Source: a virus (Duplodnaviria; Heunggongvirae; Uroviricota; Caudoviricetes). Taken from it: a DNA stretch of 64,000 nt. Of the stretch, positions 34,179 to 59,494 are shown one piece after another. The notes beneath the pieces are model-generated. The model made no database searches, was not told where the DNA came from, and was given only the letters and a program-made list of their open reading frames with translations. The stretch's first letter is position 1, and every line of letters starts with the position of its first letter. The stretch is from the IMG/VR virus record IMGVR_UViG_3300048904_000202, positions 4,007-68,006 of that record; one strand, given 5' to 3'. The position numbers were made by a program, and so were the translations under genes.

Positions 34179-34703
34179 TCAGTCCTGACGGGGAATTACG
34201 ACCATCTCGACGCCGGCTTCCGCGAAGATCGCGGCAGTCTTGGCGAGAGAAGAGGCCCAGCGGTCGGCGGCCTCGACTGGCACCGCTCGCGTCACCACGC
34301 GTTTGATGCCGGCCTGCACGACGAACACGGCGCAGCGGTCGCAAGGAGGGAAGGTGTTGTAGAGTGTGAAGCCATCCACAGGCCCGTGGGCATTGAGGAT
34401 GGCGTTCATCTCAGCGTGGACGACGCGGCTGTACTTGGTCTCCCGGTCCTCATAGAGTTCCGGCGCGTCAGACAACCCGCGAGGGAAGCCGTTGTAGCCG
34501 ACCGAGGCAACGGTGTTCGTTGGTCGGACGATGACCGAGCCCACCTTCGTGGACGGGTCCTTCGACGCGGTGGCGACGTACTCGGCCATGCCGAGGTAGA
34601 AGCAGTCCCACTTCGCGCGTCGCTGAGCGTCCGCGAAAATCCGCTGTCGACCGGGGGAGAGATCGTCCAGCCGGTCGACTACCTCATCAGCGATCGTGCC
34701 CAT
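34179..34703 (-). CDS. dCMP deaminase
   Basis: SKDPSTKVG, GYNGFP, HAEMNA, PCDRC. Confidence 0.9.
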   Translation of the reverse strand: MGTIADEVVDRLDDLSPGRQRIFADAQRRAKWDCFYLGMAEYVATASKDPSTKVGSVIVRPTNTVASVGYNGFPRGLSDAPELYEDRETKYSRVVHAEMNAILNAHGPVDGFTLYNTFPPCDRCAVFVVQAGIKRVVTRAVPVEAADRWASSLAKTAAIFAEAGVEMVVIPRQD

Positions 34704-44730: not shown

Positions 44731-44760
44731 TTGACTTTAGTCCATGAGTTGGACTATAAG
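44731..44760 (+). promoter_or_regulatory. Sigma70-type promoter of tRNA operon 1
   Basis: TTGACT-N18-TATAAG. Confidence 0.75.
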
Positions 44761-44810
44761 CTGCACTCCAACGCGGTTCGCCGCATTTGAAAGAGTTTCG
44801 AGTTCCAGTC

Positions 44811-44903
44811 ATGGCACGCAATATCAACAACCCAGCACCAATGATCGCCGCCGTCGCGGCGATTGTGGTTGTGCGTGTCGAAGACGGAGGAACGCAGGTC
44901 TAG
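44811..44903 (+). CDS. Leader peptide 1 (MARNINNPAPMIAAVAAIVVVRVEDGGTQV)
   Basis: 21 of the first 23 codons encode M/A/N/I/P/V, the amino acids of the downstream tRNAs; followed by a terminator. Confidence 0.75.
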   Translation: MARNINNPAPMIAAVAAIVVVRVEDGGTQV

Positions 44904-44936
44904 CCCGACCTACATTCCTGACACCACCGAATTTGA

Positions 44937-44974
44937 AGGGCCTCAGATCATCCGATCCGGGGCCTTTTTCTTTT
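44937..44974 (+). terminator. Attenuator terminator before tRNA operon 1
   Basis: Stem 44937-44949/44954-44966 plus TTTTTCTTTT, 11 nt upstream of the first tRNA. Confidence 0.8.
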
Positions 44975-44985
44975 CACGGTTTTGT

Positions 44986-45062
44986 CAGGGTGTGGCTCAG
45001 TCCGGTAGAGCGTGCCCCTCGGAAGGGTGAGGTCGCGGGTTCGAATCCCGCCGCCCTGACCA
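44986..45062 (+). tRNA. tRNA-Pro(CGG)
   Basis: Cloverleaf, anticodon CGG, encoded CCA. Confidence 0.9.
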
Positions 45063-45152
45063 AACCGTGATCCACTGAGGTGGTTCGCAAGATTTGAAGT
45101 TGACCGACTGGTCGCTTCCGACTAGCAGCACCGCCTCACTCGATGTGGTTGG

Positions 45153-45480: not shown

Positions 45481-45829
45481 GATAGAGGCTGAAATGCCGA
45501 AACATCGGAATTAACCAGTCCGAGAAGGTTGCAGTTACGAAGAACATGCACCGGCAGGCAGGGTGGTCCCCTGACGATACCGGACTTGGTATGTAGGCTT
45601 CGTCAGCGAGCAGCGTCCGGTGCGAGAGCATCAGACCAGTGATGGTCAGGCGGCCGTGGGTCCGAGGCAGATACCCACCGAAATTTCCCGGTCCCAGCCG
45701 GCCGTCAGTCCCATGGGACGATCGCCACACAAAGGGAGGGTAAACGGTGTGACAGTACCGGCGGCGCGCAATCCCGCGATCAGCCGCTGCGGAAAGCACA
45801 CGGGCCGGAGACAAGACATACCGGGCTAC
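45481..45829 (+). ncRNA. Unidentified structured RNA, about 350 nt, inside tRNA operon 1
   Basis: Nested stems GCACCGG/CCGGTGC, CTGACGA/TCGTCAG, CGGCCG/CGGCCG, GTCCC/GGGAC, CACAC/GTGTG; no credible ORF. Confidence 0.5.
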
Positions 45830-45906
45830 GGGGATGTAGCTCAGTTGGGTAGAGCGCCTGCCTTGCAAGCAGGATGTCGCGAGTTCGAACCTCGCCTTCT
45901 CCACCA
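45830..45906 (+). tRNA. tRNA-Ala(TGC)
   Basis: G3:U70, anticodon TGC, encoded CCA. Confidence 0.95.
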
Positions 45907-45916
45907 GCCCGGTTGT

Positions 45917-45993
45917 TTGCCGTAGCCGAACAAGGTGGACGGGGCTGACTGTTAATCAGCTTATGGTAGGTTCGATGCCTACACGGCAAGCCA
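45917..45993 (+). tRNA. tRNA-Asn(GTT), atypical D arm
   Basis: GCTGA-CTGTTAA-TCAGC anticodon arm, G73, encoded CCA. Confidence 0.8.
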
Positions 45994-46359: not shown

Positions 46360-46887
46360 ATGGTCAAGAAGGTTATTCTCGCTGCCACCGTGGCCGGCCT
46401 CGCGCTGACTGCTTCGGCCTGTAACCGGGCTCCCGCCTATGGTTACTACAACGACGGCTACTATGCCGGCGCAAACACGCAGGTCTGCACCGATCGCGCC
46501 GGCCGCCGCGTCCCCGATATCAACTGCCAGCAGGCCTATTACGGCGGCGGCTACAATCCCTACCTCTGGTATTATGTCGGCGGCGGTTACCCCGTTCCCT
46601 ATTACGGGACCGTGGTCCACGGCGGTACTTGGTCGCGTCCGTCGAACTTCCGCAGTTATGTCCGCGCACCGGCTCAAGCCAACGTGACCCGCTCGGTCGC
46701 CGTTTCGCGCGGCGGCCTCGGCTCGACCAGCCGCAGCTTCGCGCAGACCTATTCATCGCCGTCGCGCTCGTATTCGTCGAGCAGCTATTCGTCGCCGTCC
46801 CGATCCTACTCGTCGAGCAGCTATAGCTCGTCGCGTTCGTCGTTCAGCGGGGGCGGGCGCTCGTTCGGCGGGAGCGTCAGTTCGTGA
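46360..46887 (+). CDS. YgiB/DUF1190-like lipoprotein
   Basis: Lipobox TASAC, C.D..G.RV.D..C, Tyr/Gly-rich middle, SRGG.G, Ser-rich tail; adjacent to a Gsp-like ligase. Confidence 0.7.
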   Translation: MVKKVILAATVAGLALTASACNRAPAYGYYNDGYYAGANTQVCTDRAGRRVPDINCQQAYYGGGYNPYLWYYVGGGYPVPYYGTVVHGGTWSRPSNFRSYVRAPAQANVTRSVAVSRGGLGSTSRSFAQTYSSPSRSYSSSSYSSPSRSYSSSSYSSSRSSFSGGGRSFGGSVSS

Positions 46888-48035
46888 AGCGCATCCAGAC
46901 CACCCCGCGTACTGACTGGCAGGCCCGTATTCGTGATGCGGGGATGGTCTGGGCAGGCGCTGACACCGGCGGCTGGAATGAGTCCGCCTATTACTCCTTC
47001 ACCAATGAGGACATCGAGCGGATCGGCGAAGCCACCGCCGACCTCTATCGGCTGTTCATCCATTGCGGCGACGCAATGCTGGACTACCGCGACTTCTACT
47101 GGCTGCGTCAGATGGGGATGCCCGAGTGGCTGTTCCCCTATCTCAAGGCGGCGTGGGACGCGGAACCACCGGCTCTCAATTTCGGTCGCTTCGATCTCGG
47201 GTTCGACGGTCGCAATGACCCGAAGCTGTTCGAGTTCAACTGCGACACGCCCGGCAGCCTGATCGAGGCATCGTTGGCGCAAGCGATCTGGCGCGAGGAC
47301 CTGTTCCCGCGCGGTGACCAGTTCAACGGTATCAACCGGGCGCTCGTGTCGCGCTGGGCCGACCTTCGCACCTCGTTCTACGGTCGCACCTTCCACATGA
47401 CGCACGTCTTCGACGAGGACGGCGAGGACACAGCCATCACCAACTATCTGGCCGAGACCGCTCGCATGGCTGGTCTCGATCCCATGATGGTGGTGATCGA
47501 CGACATCGGTCAGGACGAGGAAGGTCGCTTCGTTGACGCCGACGACATCCTCATGGACGTGGTGTACAAGCACTACCCGTGGGAGTGGATCGTCCGTGAA
47601 GAATACGGCCGCGCCATCGTCGAGCAGTCCTCGGACCCGATGCTATGGATCGAGCCGATCTGGAAGATGCTCTGGTCGAACAAGGGAATCCTCGTCGTCG
47701 CCAAGGCGCTGGAGCCCGAGAACCCTTACCTGCTTAACGCCAGCTTCGGGGATACCGGCGCGAAGGACTTCGTGAAGAAGCCCATCTTCTCGCGACGTGG
47801 TGAGAACATCGAGATCGTAGATCAGCGCCAGACCAGCGCGCGGTCCACCGGCGGCTACGGTGCCGAGGGCTTCGTCTATCAGGAGAAGTTCGATCTCCCC
47901 GAGATGGCTCCCGGCATCTTCCCGGTGATCGACTCGTGGATCGTCGGCGGCGTCGCAGTCGGCATGGGTGTCCGCGAAGGCGGCCTCATCACAGACAGTT
48001 CGGCGGCTTTCGTCCCTCACATTATCGAGGGGTGA
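46884..48035 (+). CDS. Glutathionylspermidine synthase family ATP-grasp ligase (YgiC-like)
   Basis: W.ESAYY, GRFDLG.DG...KLFEFNCDTP, YPWEW, IEP.WK...SNKG, KKPIFSR.GENI. Confidence 0.9.
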   Translation: MKRIQTTPRTDWQARIRDAGMVWAGADTGGWNESAYYSFTNEDIERIGEATADLYRLFIHCGDAMLDYRDFYWLRQMGMPEWLFPYLKAAWDAEPPALNFGRFDLGFDGRNDPKLFEFNCDTPGSLIEASLAQAIWREDLFPRGDQFNGINRALVSRWADLRTSFYGRTFHMTHVFDEDGEDTAITNYLAETARMAGLDPMMVVIDDIGQDEEGRFVDADDILMDVVYKHYPWEWIVREEYGRAIVEQSSDPMLWIEPIWKMLWSNKGILVVAKALEPENPYLLNASFGDTGAKDFVKKPIFSRRGENIEIVDQRQTSARSTGGYGAEGFVYQEKFDLPEMAPGIFPVIDSWIVGGVAVGMGVREGGLITDSSAAFVPHIIEG

Positions 48036-48542: not shown

Positions 48543-48773
48543 ATGGATACCGATCCCGCCACAATCGCGTCGAAGCTCAACCGTGGACAGAAGTCCACCA
48601 TCCGCTGCCTCGACGATACCCCGTCCGTTCTCGGCTGCGCCGAACCAACGGCTTTACGGCTTTCGCGCGCCACAACTCGCCGGCCGGCGCTGACCTATTA
48701 CACGCAAGGCGCTTCGTGGAAGATGTTCGCCCTCACGCCGATCGGACTCGAAGTTCAGGAGCATTGTTCGTGA
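48543..48773 (+). CDS. Hypothetical protein
   Basis: Co-oriented. Confidence 0.5.
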   Translation: MDTDPATIASKLNRGQKSTIRCLDDTPSVLGCAEPTALRLSRATTRRPALTYYTQGASWKMFALTPIGLEVQEHCS

Positions 48774-49294
48774 CCAGTCCCGCCATGCACTACGCCATCA
48801 CGGCCCACGCCATCACGGCCCACGCCATCACGGCCCACGCCGGCCAAACCTATGGCGACAATGCGGTTCCCTACACGGAACATCTCTTCGCGGTCCGACA
48901 GGTGCTGCGGGACTTCGGGTATTTCGGCGACTATGAAGATGCCGGCGTCCTCCATGACGTGATCGAGGACACCGCCGAGAGCCGCCGCACCGTGGCCGTC
49001 AAGTTCGGAGATCGGGTCGCCACCATGGCGTGGGTCTGCACCGGCGTTGGCCCGAACCGCGTCGTTCGCAACTGGTCCATCTACGCCAAGATGAGCATGT
49101 TTCCCGAGGCCGCGCCGGTGAAGGTCGCCGATCGGATCGCGAATGTCGAGCAGGCCACACCCGGATCGAAACACGCCAAGATGTATCTCGCCGAAGCGGG
49201 TGAGTTCCACGAACACGTCGCGCGGCTCGTGCCTCCACTGATGCAGGCCCGTCTCCTGCGGGCCTACGACGCCGCAGCACAGGTGCCGGCATGA
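48770..49294 (+). CDS. HD-domain (p)ppGpp hydrolase-like protein (SpoT-HD/Mesh1 type)
   Basis: AH.GQ.Y....PY..HL..V, AGVLHDVIEDT, VKVADRIAN. Confidence 0.8.
   Translation: MTSPAMHYAITAHAITAHAITAHAGQTYGDNAVPYTEHLFAVRQVLRDFGYFGDYEDAGVLHDVIEDTAESRRTVAVKFGDRVATMAWVCTGVGPNRVVRNWSIYAKMSMFPEAAPVKVADRIANVEQATPGSKHAKMYLAEAGEFHEHVARLVPPLMQARLLRAYDAAAQVPA
48792..48841 (+). repeat. 15-nt perfect tandem repeat x3.3 (AITAH)
   Basis: ACGCCATCACGGCCC x3 plus ACGCC. Confidence 0.95.
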
Positions 49295-49410: not shown

Positions 49411-49610
49411 TGACCGCGCGCCAGTTCGTCTTCCTACTCCAGTGGGGTTGGTTGATGTTGCTCGCTGGTCTCTTCTCGCTTCTCTGCATGCCGATGTTCG
49501 CCATGCACGCGTGGATGGAGCGCAAGCCTCATCCGTGGCGCTGGGCGTGGGGTGTGGTGTCGAGCGGCGGCTTTCGGGATTTCGCGAAGGATTGGAGAAA
49601 GTACGGATGA
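49410..49610 (+). CDS. Small membrane protein
   Basis: TM helix; coupled. Confidence 0.5.
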   Translation: MTARQFVFLLQWGWLMLLAGLFSLLCMPMFAMHAWMERKPHPWRWAWGVVSSGGFRDFAKDWRKYG

Positions 49611-50119
49611 ACAAGCTCCAAGCCGCGACCGACACCGTCAAGGAACTGCTCTGCTGGTACGTCATCCTGCTGTTCGCAGCAGCCGGCGTCTACATGTTCG
49701 CGGAACACACATCACTCGACGACGCGCTCTATTGGGCAGCGACCACCGCGACCTCGACCGGGTATGGTGACCTGTCGCCGAAGACGATCGCCGGCCGGAT
49801 TGATGCCGTGCTGCTCATGCACATCTCGATCTTCGTCATCGCGCCCATGATGATCGTCCGCCTCATCGACAGGATGCGCGTCGATCCGAACGTCTTCACG
49901 GACGAGGAGCAGAAGGAGGTGCTGGAACACCTGCGAGCGATCCGGGACAAGGTCGGTGAGCCGGATTACGGCAAGTCGCCCCGTCTAGCTCAGACGCTCA
50001 GGCAGCTTCGCAACACCTATTACCACATGCTGCGAGCGCCTGATTTCTGCACGAAGGCTGCTGCGGCCTCCATCAAGATGGCGATCGACCAGCTTGAGAA
50101 AGTGGCGAAGGAACAGTGA
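49607..50119 (+). CDS. Two-TM potassium channel (KcsA-like pore)
   Basis: TM1-pore helix (DALYWAATT)-TSTGYGDLSP filter-TM2. Confidence 0.85.
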   Translation: MNKLQAATDTVKELLCWYVILLFAAAGVYMFAEHTSLDDALYWAATTATSTGYGDLSPKTIAGRIDAVLLMHISIFVIAPMMIVRLIDRMRVDPNVFTDEEQKEVLEHLRAIRDKVGEPDYGKSPRLAQTLRQLRNTYYHMLRAPDFCTKAAAASIKMAIDQLEKVAKEQ

Positions 50120-52520: not shown

Positions 52521-52557
52521 CCAGACAAACTTTTTTCGTCCTTATGTCGATTTTGGG

Positions 52558-52586
52558 TTGACCTAGACCATCCGCCTGTGTATAAG
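52558..52586 (+). promoter_or_regulatory. Sigma70-type promoter of tRNA operon 2
   Basis: TTGACC-N17-TATAAG. Confidence 0.8.
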
Positions 52587-52633
52587 CCCACCTCTCGACG
52601 CACTTCCGCGTCAACAGGATTATTGAGACCACC

Positions 52634-52690
52634 ATGTTCTTCGGGACCAAACGAGATCGCCGAGAAGGCGAACGAGGTTTTAGCCTCTAA
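52634..52690 (+). CDS. Leader peptide 2 (MFFGTKRDRREGERGFSL)
   Basis: 14 of 18 residues are F/G/K/R/D/E, the amino acids of the downstream tRNAs. Confidence 0.75.
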   Translation: MFFGTKRDRREGERGFSL

Positions 52691-52726
52691 CCCGGTGGTG
52701 TGTCCTGCTGCCGGTGTCGTTTTGAC

Positions 52727-52803
52727 GGATCGGTAGCTCAATAGCGTAGAGCGGTGGGTTCTTACCCCGCAGGTTGTGGGTTCGACCCCCACCCGATCCT
52801 CCA
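52727..52803 (+). tRNA. tRNA-Lys(CTT)
   Basis: Cloverleaf, encoded CCA. Confidence 0.9.
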
Positions 52804-52825
52804 AAACGACATCGGTAAAATTGAC

Positions 52826-52854
52826 ACCCCATCGGCGACCCCGGTGGGGTTTTT
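52826..52854 (+). terminator. Attenuator terminator after the first tRNA of operon 2
   Basis: ACCCCATCGG/CCGGTGGGGT stem plus T-run. Confidence 0.7.
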
Positions 52855-52876
52855 CGCGTCCGCATTCTCGGCTCAT

Positions 52877-52951
52877 GGATCGGTAACTCAATGGGCAGAG
52901 TGGCGGACTTTTAATCCGAGGGTGTGGGTTCGAGGCCCACCCGATCTACCA
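52877..52951 (+). tRNA. tRNA-Lys(TTT)
   Basis: Cloverleaf, encoded CCA. Confidence 0.9.
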
Positions 52952-52967
52952 AATTTCACGGGCCTGA

Positions 52968-53040
52968 GCGGTTGTAGTCTCAGCGGTAGAGCGTCGGCTT
53001 GCCAAGTCGAAGGTCGCGGGTTCGATCCCCGCCTGCCGCT
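52968..53040 (+). tRNA. tRNA-Gly(GCC), CCA not encoded
   Basis: Anticodon GCC, U73. Confidence 0.85.
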
Positions 53041-53156
53041 CAAGCCCGTGATCACAAGTTTCCAGCGGGGTCCGCGCCAGTCCAAGACCTTCATGGGAAA
53101 GCCGATCGACCATAGGACCAGCGCAGTTGGTCGATCGTGAAATGAGATGTGTTGAT

Positions 53157-53231
53157 GCGGCCGTAGCCAAGCGGTCAAGGCAGGAGGCTTCCACCCTCCC
53201 AGCGCGGGTTCGATCCCCGCCGGCCGCTCCA
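53157..53231 (+). tRNA. tRNA-Gly(TCC)
   Basis: Cloverleaf, U73, encoded CCA. Confidence 0.9.
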
Positions 53232-53242
53232 TCACCTCTCAC

Positions 53243-53317
53243 GGACACGTAGCTCAGTGGTAGAGTCTCGCACTGTCGATGCGAGTGTCGCGGGTTCGAT
53301 CCCCGTCGTGTCCGCCA
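53243..53317 (+). tRNA. tRNA-Asp(GTC)
   Basis: Cloverleaf, G73, encoded CCA. Confidence 0.9.
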
Positions 53318-53323
53318 CTTCAC

Positions 53324-53399
53324 GGCCCGTTCGTCTAGCTGGACAGGACGACCGCCTCTCACGCGGTAAGCAGGGGTTCGATCCCCCTACGGGCTACCA
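53324..53399 (+). tRNA. tRNA-Glu(CTC)
   Basis: Cloverleaf, encoded CCA. Confidence 0.9.
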
Positions 53400-53420
53400 G
53401 TACCCACATGCTTTCAGCAT

Positions 53421-53494
53421 GGCCCCATAGACTAAGGGTAGGTCGCCAGTTTTTCACGCTGGAAGTCGGAGTTCAATTCTCCGTGGGGCTACCA
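53421..53494 (+). tRNA. tRNA-Glu(TTC)
   Basis: Cloverleaf, encoded CCA. Confidence 0.9.
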
Positions 53495-53536
53495 ATTTGA
53501 CGGACACCGCGCTGGTCGCGATCCGTCCACGAGTAC

Positions 53537-53612
53537 GCCGCTATAGCTCAACAGGATAGAGCGCGGGATTACGAATCCCAAGGTCGAGGTTCGAGTCCTC
53601 GTAGCGGCTCCA
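53537..53612 (+). tRNA. tRNA-Arg(ACG)
   Basis: Cloverleaf, encoded CCA. Confidence 0.9.
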
Positions 53613-53620
53613 GCCTCTTC

Positions 53621-53695
53621 GCCGAGGTAGCTCAGTGGTAGAGCGCCGGCTTGAAATCCCGGAAGTCGCAGGTTCAACTCCTGCTCTCGGCACCA
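53621..53695 (+). tRNA. tRNA-Phe(GAA)
   Basis: Cloverleaf, encoded CCA. Confidence 0.9.
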
Positions 53696-53735: not shown

Positions 53736-53764
53736 TTGACACTACCACTCGACCTGTGTATAAG
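53736..53764 (+). promoter_or_regulatory. Sigma70-type promoter of tRNA operon 3
   Basis: TTGACA-N17-TATAAG. Confidence 0.8.
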
Positions 53765-53771
53765 CCGCTCC

Positions 53772-53852
53772 ATGTTCACACAGACCCTCTTGAGCCTAAC
53801 CGGCACGACGCTTTGGCATTATTGCCAACAGCATCTGAGTTCATCCCTCTAA
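53772..53852 (+). CDS. Leader peptide 3 (MFTQTLLSLTGTTLWHYCQQHLSSSL), probably leaderless mRNA
   Basis: 23 of 26 residues are S/Y/L/T/H/Q/C/W, the amino acids of the downstream tRNAs; ATG lies 7 nt after the -10 box. Confidence 0.78.
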   Translation: MFTQTLLSLTGTTLWHYCQQHLSSSL

Positions 53853-53887
53853 GGGGAGTGGTCTGACGCCCGCTCCCCTCTCCATAC

Positions 53888-53975
53888 GGAGGGTTGGCAG
53901 AGTGGGTTATTGCGGCGGTCTCGAAAACCGCTGAACCGAAAGGTTCCGTGGGTTCAAATCCCACACCCTCCTCCA
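53888..53975 (+). tRNA. tRNA-Ser(CGA)
   Basis: Long variable arm, encoded CCA. Confidence 0.9.
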
Positions 53976-53984
53976 GATTTTCAG

Positions 53985-54024
53985 AGCGTCAGCAGCCTAC
54001 GGGCCGCTGGCGCTTTTTCGTTTT
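53985..54024 (+). terminator. Attenuator terminator after the first tRNA of operon 3
   Basis: AGCGTCAGC/GCTGGCGCT stem plus TTTTTCGTTTT. Confidence 0.75.
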
Positions 54025-54114
54025 GGGTCGTCTTCCCCTCGCCGGACTGTAACCCCGGTGCCATCGAACCGAGGGGCTGTGTGGCGGGAGGTTCGAGTCC
54101 TCGACGACCCACCA
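54025..54114 (+). tRNA. Non-canonical tRNA-Tyr(GTA) lacking a D arm
   Basis: Perfect 7-bp acceptor, A73, CCA, T arm and GTA anticodon arm; only 10 nt where the D arm should be. Confidence 0.7.
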
Positions 54115-54157
54115 TTCTATTCCAGCAGGAGTACGATCAAGAGTTCACGAGTTGCAC

Positions 54158-54245
54158 GCACTGGTGGCGGAACTGGATATACGCAGCAAGCTCAGACCTT
54201 GCCGCCCTTTGAGGATTGTGGGTTCGAGTCCCACCCGGTGTACCA
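54158..54245 (+). tRNA. tRNA-Leu(CAG)
   Basis: Long V arm, A73, encoded CCA. Confidence 0.9.
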
Positions 54246-54256
54246 GCAACTCGAAC

Positions 54257-54341
54257 GCGGATGTGGTGAAATAGGTAAACGCAGCGGGTCGAGAGCCCGC
54301 CGGCTTCGGCCTTGTGGGTTCAAGTCCCACCTTCCGCACCA
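54257..54341 (+). tRNA. tRNA-Leu(GAG)
   Basis: Long V arm, A73, encoded CCA. Confidence 0.9.
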
Positions 54342-54429: not shown

Positions 54430-54457
54430 CGAGTTGATCAGTGTCCATGGGCGTGGT

Positions 54458-54533
54458 GTGGCCTAACGCAATACAGTGCGCGGCCGGATTGTGACTCCGG
54501 TGCTAGAGGGTGCAGGTCCCTCAGGTCACCCCA
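54458..54533 (+). tRNA. tRNA-His(GTG), divergent D/T loops, C73
   Basis: GTGGCCT/AGGTCAC acceptor, CCGGA-TTGTGAC-TCCGG arm, encoded CCA. Confidence 0.75.
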
Positions 54534-58860: not shown

Positions 58861-58939
58861 CTTGCCGACCGTGGAGGTCGGTTGGTCAACACTAGGCCGG
58901 CGAGGCAGGGAGTAGTGTCCCGGCAACGAGCTTTGGTCT

Positions 58940-59336
58940 GCCCCATCGCCAGTGATGGCGAGATGATCGTAATTCGGACGATCGAAGTTTTGGCTCGGAC
59001 GCGGGGGCGGTTCCCGCCGGTTCCACCACGAGCCCCGATATTACTGCCACTAGGGGCGACCTACCGCTCCGAAGAGGCGCGGAGTTATCGGCCGCGCTCT
59101 GTGTTCGGGGTTGATGATGGGGCCGAAGTAGGATTCGACGGGCAAGGCGGAGGTTAGGACGCGATCTAGCATGACCGACTACGCTTCGGCGAGACAGGTC
59201 ACCGTTTGTAAATGCGAACGACAACACTCCGGTGGTTGTCGCCCGCGACGAGGTTCGCCTCGCCGCGTAAGCGATAACTCTCAGCCTCCGGACTGAGAAA
59301 AGGGGCTCGGGGCCAGCCTTGCAACAGAATGGCCCC
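58940..59336 (+). ncRNA. ssrA: Circularly permuted two-piece tmRNA (alphaproteobacterial type); 5' boundary approximate
   Basis: Acceptor piece ends GCGGG-GGCGGTT-CCCGC-CGGTTCC-ACCA at 59028; coding piece starts GGGGCCGAAGTAGGATTCGACGGG at 59119 (G3:U70); tag ANDNTPVVVARDEVRLAA* at 59214-59270; terminal GGGGCC..CAACAGAA..GGCCCC hairpin. Confidence 0.9.
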
Positions 59337-59345
59337 ACGAGATTT

Positions 59346-59494
59346 GAGGTAGCTGGAGGTCGCCGGTTCGAGTCCGGTCATCCCCTGATCCGGGATGTAG
59401 CTCAGATGGTAGAGCGCCAGCGTAGGGGAGACACCGGTTCGACTCCGGTCCGGCTGTTGATCAGCAGCCGTTAGCTTAGAGGTAAAGCGCCTCG
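59346..59494 (+). ncRNA. Two tandem circularly permuted tRNA-like modules (T arm, loop-closed acceptor stem, D arm)
   Basis: T loops TTCGAGT and TTCGACT, canonical D arms, acceptor-like stems closed by TGATC-containing loops. Confidence 0.75.

Follow-up and report, generated by a model that had tools for sequence, protein, structure and literature searches.

The leader-peptide attenuators of enterobacteria include the trp, his, leu and pheA leaders as well as the multivalent leaders of ilvGMEDA (Ile/Val/Leu) and thr (Thr/Ile). In E. coli, the pheST attenuator with its pheM leader controls an aminoacyl-tRNA synthetase operon. T-box riboswitches (RF00230) contain no ORF; they bind a tRNA in trans via a specifier loop and a T-box bulge. 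Processing stalks of the rRNA type are leader–trailer helices that are cut by RNase III. Control of tRNA genes is usually placed at the promoter (growth rate and ppGpp) and in processing.

Here we describe the leader of a phage tRNA operon (operon 2) within a 64,000-nucleotide stretch of DNA, referred to as the window; positions are counted from its first letter, and the features of operon 2 lie on its plus strand. We read this leader as a transcription attenuator of the ribosome-mediated, leader-peptide kind, with eight phage tRNA genes under its control, and put the probability of this reading at roughly 55%. A strand directly 3′ of the stop codon of a short leader ORF (r2) can pair with a distal strand (r3) as an antiterminator, or r3 can pair with the strand that follows it (r4) as an intrinsic terminator; between r2 and r3 lies a complete tRNA-Lys(CUU) gene that is clasped by a helix of its own flanks (P1). 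The parts are present and conserved, the helices covary, the two alternative folds are mutually exclusive and nearly isoenergetic, and the codons of the leader match the tRNAs of the operon. A preliminary description of the locus, made from the sequence alone, had already proposed an attenuator with a tRNA inside the antiterminator loop. Its positions were all correct when read directly from the sequence, and the terminator, the competing r2:r3 pairing and the tRNA clasp hold up, being conserved with compensatory changes; all described features recur in 9–10 sequences except a pairing of r2 with the leader start, which turned out to be phage-specific, and a hairpin that holds r2 (H3) had been overlooked.

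The leader shares with the ilvGMEDA, thr and trp-type attenuators a promoter, a short ORF with product-linked codons, a stop codon beside the switch, mutually exclusive 2:3 and 3:4 pairings and a U tract; as in ilvGMEDA and thr, one leader would sense several amino acids. Unlike in the enterobacterial systems, the regulated genes would be phage tRNA genes and the sensed product the decoder itself. The six amino acids are represented by 1–4 codons each, with no tandem runs, and sensitivity may be low because of these small numbers. There is no conserved 1:2 pairing either, the phage leader having instead the downstream holding hairpin H3, and its 2:3 loop encloses a whole tRNA gene plus a clasp helix; the nested tRNA is a special feature of the operon 2 leader. 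As in pheST, leader-peptide attenuation would act on a component of the translation apparatus rather than on amino acid biosynthesis, but pheST responds to a single amino acid (Phe), yields an enzyme and has no nested tRNA. The likeness to T-boxes is that the status of a tRNA would bear on the outcome and that a choice between terminator and antiterminator lies in the leader; the difference is that the phage tRNA is present in cis, as part of the transcript. An Rfam scan of 52540–52880 (E up to 10) detected no T-box, only the tRNA and a sub-threshold tRNA-like match, and the leader matches no known RNA family in Rfam. Finally, P1 and r2:r3 together form a long interrupted helix from the sequences flanking a stable RNA gene, as in rRNA stalks, and the modelled stalk geometry (P1 of 13–15 bp, an internal loop, r2:r3 of 12 bp) would be compatible with RNase III cleavage. 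In contrast to rRNA stalks, the distal half of the phage stalk borders directly on a stop codon and is in competition with an intrinsic terminator.

The window comes from a phage record of 164 kb in IMG/VR, and its closest named relatives are Sphingobium phage Lacusarx and the Erythrobacter phages XM05 and vB_EliS-L02; the datasets containing this stretch are DNA metagenomes from roots, rhizosphere, soil and sludge. The window encodes 26 tRNAs and an alpha-type tmRNA in two pieces, which is permuted (58936–59361 and 59397–59450, tag ANDNTPVVVARDEVRLAA) and followed by a borderline tRNA-like match (29.7 bits). DNA pattern scans and BLAST identified ten distinct homologous leaders, namely those of the window, Lacusarx, XM05, vB_EliS-L02, L006, L010, L011, L012, L133 and L134; the last is truncated, which leaves nine full-length homologs. 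The order of parts is common to 9–10 distinct sequences: promoter, ATG, 18–20 codons, stop, r2, P1–tRNA-Lys(CUU)–P1, r3, r4 and T tract. A metagenome-wide scan with a degenerate pattern at the peptide level returned 120 loci with a single true homolog, L098 (identical to L006), and the remaining loci were rejected as chance coding matches; a candidate from a second pattern scan (L135) was a false positive. Upstream of the tRNA groups of the tRNA-rich but more distant phage DSS3_MAL1 there are neither matched leader ORFs nor promoters of this type, and the attenuator element appears to be confined to the Lacusarx/Erythrobacter-phage clade.

Operon 2 is headed by a promoter at 52558–52586, with a −35 element TTGACC (52558–52563), a 17-nt spacer and a −10 element TATAAG (52581–52586), and its transcript probably starts near 52594. 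Sigma-70-type promoters (TTGACA-17-TATAAG/TATAGT/TATCAT/TACACT) lie 39–49 nt 5′ of the leader ATG in 8/8 homologs examined, and operons 1 and 3 also start with a promoter of this type. The leader transcript has a 5′-terminal hairpin (52597–52612, GACGC/GCGTC) that is predicted in every fold; its stem letters differ in the relatives with pairing kept (GAGCC/GGCTC, GAGGC/GCCTC, GGGACA/TGTCCC, GCGGG/CCCGC). The Shine–Dalgarno-like AGGA (52617–52620, within ACAGGATT) sits at a non-canonical spacing, 13–18 nt 5′ of the ATG, and is found in eight of the nine full-length homologs and missing from Lacusarx, as judged from alignment A1 and the sequences; the sole normally spaced candidate is a weak GAG/GGA 7–9 nt 5′ of the ATG. 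A Shine–Dalgarno survey of the window's ORFs was uninformative, their starts being taken crudely as the first ATG.

The leader ORF (52634–52690; ATG 52634, TAA 52688–52690) begins 47 nt beyond the −10 element and encodes the 18-codon peptide MFFGTKRDRREGERGFSL. It is in frame in ten sequences, with lengths of 18–20 codons and a core of KRDRREG(D)ERGF. All indels are multiples of three, i.e. a GAC/GAT or CGC insertion and four or five N-terminal codons, and core codons common to all leaders differ by synonymous substitutions only (CGA/CGG, GGT/GGG, GAC/GAT). The core occurs as KRDRREGERGF, KRDRREGDERGF, KRDRRERGERGF and KRDRRRGEERGF, with the endings ...EGDERGF, ...ERGERGF and ...RRRGEERGF, and never leaves the set K, R, D, E, G and F, while the N-terminal codons are shuffled F, G, R, D and E plus Thr or Tyr. 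By this pattern of change the ORF behaves like a coding sequence, which suggests that it is translated. Two hairpins form inside it. H1 (52657–52671, TCGCC-GAGAA-GGCGA) has an invariant stem and is kept, even lengthened, in L133 despite a 3-nt insertion; its support is weak because there is no covariation. H2 (52674–52687, GAGG-TTTTAG-CCTC) covers the last codons, with its 3′ end at the stop codon, and its pairing is maintained while the last two residues vary (SL/TS/TL), with GAGGG/CCCTC in L012 and CGAGG/CCTCG in the XM05 group. These hairpins, rather than codon identity, could be the cause of the near-invariant synonymous sites in the core.

The antiterminator strand r2 (52692–52704) starts 1 nt past the stop codon, a distance of 0–1 nt in all homologs, and includes GGTGGTGTGTC at 52694–52704. 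Its partner r3 (52823–52835, with GACACCCCATC at 52823–52833) is the strand common to the antiterminator (with r2) and the terminator (with r4). Between 52694–52704 and 52823–52833, ten of 11 positions pair, as the preliminary description had counted, with one G–U pair and one T×C mismatch; r2:r3 pairing spans 13 positions in all (52692–52704 with 52823–52835). The duplex has a stability of −19.3 kcal/mol compared with −8.2 kcal/mol for shuffled r2 (0/500 shuffles as good) and is significant in seven of eight homologs. Its central mismatch is conserved, which implies that the antiterminator is kept weaker than a perfect helix. The terminator, also located earlier at 52826–52854, consists of a 10-bp stem (52826–52835/52841–52850), the loop CGACC and T5 (52850–52854). 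It reaches −17.9 kcal/mol in the window and −18 to −28 kcal/mol in relatives, and all nine homologs have a GC-rich stem of 10–13 bp, with covariation, that is followed by T4–5. A consensus terminator scanner failed to call it because the maximal stem takes in the first T and leaves a tail of four Ts.

tRNA-Lys(CTT) (52727–52803, 61.9 bits, encoded CCA) lies in the antiterminator loop, 5′ of the terminator, at an identical position in all relatives. Its clasp P1 joins a 5′ arm at 52709–52723 (core 52711–52723) to a 3′ arm at 52803–52817 (core 52803–52815). The 15-bp flank helix reported at first is real, comprising 15 contiguous pairs at −24.8 kcal/mol in the window and 12–15 bp across homologs, with 6/13 core pairs changed on both sides. 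The holding hairpin H3 (52692–52714) pairs 52692–52700 with 52706–52714, so that its 5′ half belongs to r2 and its 3′ half shares 4 nt with the outer end of the P1 5′ arm. H3 came up in a hairpin search of the window and in the RNAalifold consensus; 98.6% of its cells are paired across homologs and one pair is changed on both sides. As side observations, the discriminator of tRNA-Lys(CTT) (52800–52803 region) is T in all relatives, the encoded 3′ end being TCCTCCA (TCATCCA in L011), unlike tRNA-Lys(TTT), which has A73. A conserved TTCTCGGC block, possibly a processing site, occupies 52865–52872 in the spacer between terminator and tRNA-Lys(TTT) in the relatives examined. Further downstream, a 115-nt gap between Gly(GCC) and Gly(TCC) (53041–53157) contains a 9–10 bp hairpin (GATCGACCA...TGGTCGATC) without a T tract.

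Since alignment A1 (MAFFT) misplaced gaps in the terminator arm, covariation was counted on anchored segments and on a nine-sequence alignment (A2). In A2, r2:r3 is 90.7% paired with 2/12 pairs changed on both sides, r3:r4 has 96.6% of cells paired with 2/13 pairs changed on both sides, and one r3 column (213) covaries with both column 81 in r2 and column 239 in r4. Both global folds exceed 500/500 shuffles and every slid control across the nine sequences. When the RNA from stop codon to T tract is folded, the antiterminator fold is the more stable by 1.6–6.8 kcal/mol in seven of nine homologs, and in six of these seven the probability of the terminator is close to zero; in L133 and L003 the terminator fold wins despite a free r2. 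If the first 11 nt past the stop codon are masked in silico, which approximates a terminating ribosome, the probability of the terminator is at least 0.90 in 9/9 homologs, and including the naked ORF in the fold gives at least 0.72 in 7/9, L003 behaving in the opposite way once the ORF is naked. A mask that extends from the start codon to the end of the core, imitating a stalled ribosome with a queue behind it, yields the antiterminator in 8/8 homologs. In stepwise folding of the nascent RNA of the window, H3 forms first, P1 forms upon synthesis of the tRNA 3′ flank and weakens H3, and r2:r3 pairs once r3 emerges, ahead of r4. The pairing of r2 with ACCACC/CAGGA around the leader start (52615–52633), which the preliminary description had included as a further alternative, is present in the window (−20 kcal/mol, p ~0.05) but neither conserved nor significant in relatives. 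Minimum-free-energy folds of the naked leader do pair r2 with start-proximal sequence in 6/9 homologs, in differing registers. Pairing of r2 with the leader is no better than that of shuffles in 7/8 homologs, and a region 1, or anti-antiterminator, was not retained as a conserved feature of the leader.

What the leader may report on is indicated by its codons. The eight gated tRNA genes (52877–53695) are Lys(TTT), Gly(GCC), Gly(TCC), Asp(GTC), Glu(CTC), Glu(TTC), Arg(ACG) and Phe(GAA), and the stretch from these genes to the next promoter at 53736 is free of protein-coding genes. The nine tRNAs of operon 2 serve precisely the six amino acids K, R, D, E, G and F. Under standard wobble rules, the tRNAs of operon 2 read 14 of the 17 sense codons that follow the ATG, those of operon 1 none and those of operon 3 two; among 13,625 segments of equal length from the long ORFs of the phage, only 2–3 match as well. 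An initial focus on arginine, based on three of the four leader Arg codons being CGA (the series CGA, CGC, CGA, CGA is confirmed) and an encoded tRNA-Arg(ACG), was right about the Arg match and too narrow in scope, since the match extends to six amino acids and is mirrored in the other two operons. As regards decoding of CGA, a phage TadA was sought and the candidate rejected; the sole deaminase-fold ORF of a PF14437 scan (34179–34703, minus strand) is of the dCMP/dCTP-deaminase type and scores below curated cut-offs. The sole Lys codon in every leader 2 homolog is AAA, which is read by the downstream tRNA-Lys(UUU) and not by the embedded tRNA-Lys(CUU); AAG, the common codon and the one read by the nested tRNA, makes up 86% of Lys codons in phage ORFs. 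Rare-codon bias of leader 2 is not significant (quantile 0.14).

The leader of operon 1 (MARNINNPAPMIAAVAAIVVVRV..., 44811–44903) precedes Pro, Met, Val, Ala, Asn and Ile tRNAs and matches its own operon in 21 of 29 residues, and that of operon 3 (MFTQTLLSLTGTTLWHYCQQHLSSSL, 53772–53852) precedes Ser, Leu, Thr, Gln, Cys and Trp tRNAs and matches in 20 of 25; none of ~13,000 control segments does as well in either case. The correspondence recurs in Lacusarx, L012, L010 and L011, where the composition is kept and the order of residues is shuffled (for example LWHYCQQH, QCHYWQ and QWHYCQLH), and in L012, whose operon 1 has gained a tRNA-Thr(UGU), codon 2 of the operon 1 leader is ACA. Three leaders that are matched to their own tRNA sets while their order is shuffled are hard to explain unless translation of each leader serves as a readout of the tRNAs encoded downstream of it. 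At ~54455–54531, missed by both ARAGORN and Rfam, there is a divergent gene resembling tRNA-His(GTG) that can be aligned with its counterparts in Lacusarx and L012; it keeps the TTGTGA anticodon loop and the flank helix CCATGGGC/GCCCATGG, and its T arm is aberrant. This gene would account for the two His codons of leader 3.

If these parts operate as their arrangement suggests, transcription would begin near 52594 and a ribosome would translate the 18-codon leader while the weak hairpin H3 initially sequesters r2, 3′ of the stop codon. Synthesis of tRNA-Lys(CUU) and its 3′ flank would then allow P1 to form, take the base of H3 and free r2. Should r2 be uncovered as r3 emerges, r2:r3 would stack on P1, no terminator would form and RNA polymerase would continue into the genes for Lys(UUU), two Gly, Asp, two Glu, Arg and Phe tRNAs. 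A ribosome that has already reached the stop codon would cover about the first 9–11 nt of r2, and a vacated leader could re-trap r2 in most homologs; with r2 covered or re-trapped, r3 would pair with r4 and the transcript would end in vivo at ~52854, delivering tRNA-Lys(CUU) only. Because the leader uses Lys AAA, Arg CGA/CGC, Asp, Glu GAA, Gly and Phe codons, slow decoding would raise exactly the cognate tRNAs. The phage thus probably makes the eight tRNAs of the operon only while ribosomes read these codons slowly, and leader decoding would exert negative feedback on tRNA supply. r2 and r3 are separated by ~130 nt, the tRNA gene and clasp helix inside the 2:3 loop taking up ~107 nt; given this gap, the timing would have to rely on a long-lived ribosome that is still at the stop codon seconds later, on repeated ribosomes or on the re-trapping of r2.

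A ribosome-dependent switch could also follow a different logic, with leader translation acting positively or reporting general capacity such as ribosome availability, host shut-off or the stringent response. The structure and the juxtaposition of stop codon and r2 show only that the position of the ribosome matters, not what slows it, H1 and H2 could set ribosome speed without involving any tRNA, and an ORF with a SpoT-like HD domain is located between tRNA operons. A gauge of general capacity would nevertheless need neither three leaders with non-overlapping amino acid sets, each matched to its operon, nor a leader composition that is conserved while residue order is shuffled, and we consider it unlikely. 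Three ORFs (46884–48035, 48716–49294 and 49442–50119) sit between tRNA operons 1 and 2. One of the inter-operon ORFs is glutathionylspermidine-synthase-like (PF03738, E 1e-106), another is ion-channel-like, and one is a small HD_4/RelA-SpoT-hydrolase-like ORF, a weak match below NCBIfam cut-offs and a possible alarmone hydrolase.

The other two operons are organized along related lines. In operon 3 (53736–54030), the first tRNA, Ser-CGA (53888–53975), lies between an antiterminator strand CTGACGC (~53863–69) and the left arm of a terminator whose T tract is found near 54024, and in operon 1 (44731–44985) the terminator (~44944–44975) precedes the first tRNA, with no tRNA nested. Flank helices of 7–9 bp occur at Pro (tRNA at 44986, region 44963–45075), Gly(GCC) (52968, region 52955–53053) and Leu(CAG) (54158, region 54135–54265), and that of tRNA-Ala (45830, region 45805–45930) has ~13 bp in two segments and −26 kcal/mol. 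These helices suggest that leader–trailer pairing is a clade-wide feature of the pre-tRNAs, perhaps a processing signal, and their presence around other tRNAs, the His-like gene included, means that P1 may serve processing too, perhaps mainly. Taken to its conclusion, this argument would make P1 and r2:r3 a constitutive stalk for the excision or folding of tRNA-Lys(CUU), followed by a fixed partial terminator that favours Lys(CUU) over the distal tRNAs, with the ORF untranslated or irrelevant. The helices at Ala, Pro, Gly(GCC), Leu and the His-like gene speak for a stalk of this kind, as do the non-canonical Shine–Dalgarno spacing and a core whose nucleotides hardly vary, as would befit an RNA structure. 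It leaves unexplained, however, why the ORF is conserved in frame with constrained codons in shuffled order, why three leaders match their tRNA sets, why r3 doubles as a terminator arm with three-way covariation and why r2 and the stop codon are neighbours in all homologs, and a dosage structure of this type is improbable as the whole account.

It has also to be considered that the nascent tRNA-Lys(CUU) is itself the sensor, its binding or cleavage by RNase P, LysRS, EF-Tu or a phage factor altering P1, r2:r3 and termination while the ORF plays a secondary part. The tRNA occupies exactly the antiterminator loop in all relatives and a tRNA does so again in operon 3, a cut by RNase P at a distance of 3 nt from P1 would detach r2 from the growing transcript, and U73 is found in tRNA-Lys(CUU) of all relatives; yet a P1 of 13–15 bp would keep the strands together after cleavage, and operon 1 combines a matched leader with a terminator and nests no tRNA, which makes such sensing very improbable. 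That the ORF encodes a functional micropeptide, as the highly conserved core KRDRREG(D)ERGF might imply, or that the codon match is a coincidence is scarcely credible, given that no coding gene lies downstream, that the core changes by insertion and substitution yet stays within the six-residue set, and that an empirical chance of ~2e-4 per leader stands against a match seen in three leaders.

Extending ribosome-mediated attenuation to all three operons, we tentatively propose, at slightly less than even odds, a demand-sensing circuit of tRNA supply in which three leaders partition 18–19 amino acids and each controls the tRNA genes that serve the codons it contains. The first tRNA, placed within the antiterminator in two of the three operons, would act there as clasp and delay line and be made from every transcript, and the delay of ~130 nt would set a threshold of translation speed on which transcription of the remaining tRNA genes depends.

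Lacusarx has 24 tRNAs according to its genome paper, which also discusses phiCbK-like phages and covers the tRNA region without mention of a leader or of attenuation (PMC5648845). The Lacusarx genome carries a homologous leader beside the same clustered tRNA genes. A full-text literature search retrieved no paper on attenuation of tRNA operons, and no publication was found on codon-matched leaders before phage tRNA operons or on a nested tRNA.

A leader-peptide attenuator acting on tRNA genes would, if true, let the speed of decoding feed back directly on the production of tRNAs. It would account for the expression of large phage tRNA sets only as needed, for example when the host tRNA pool is poorly suited to the phage codons or is being degraded. 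The nested tRNA, if it functions as proposed, would illustrate a design principle in which a stable RNA gene serves as a clamp or timer inside a riboregulator.
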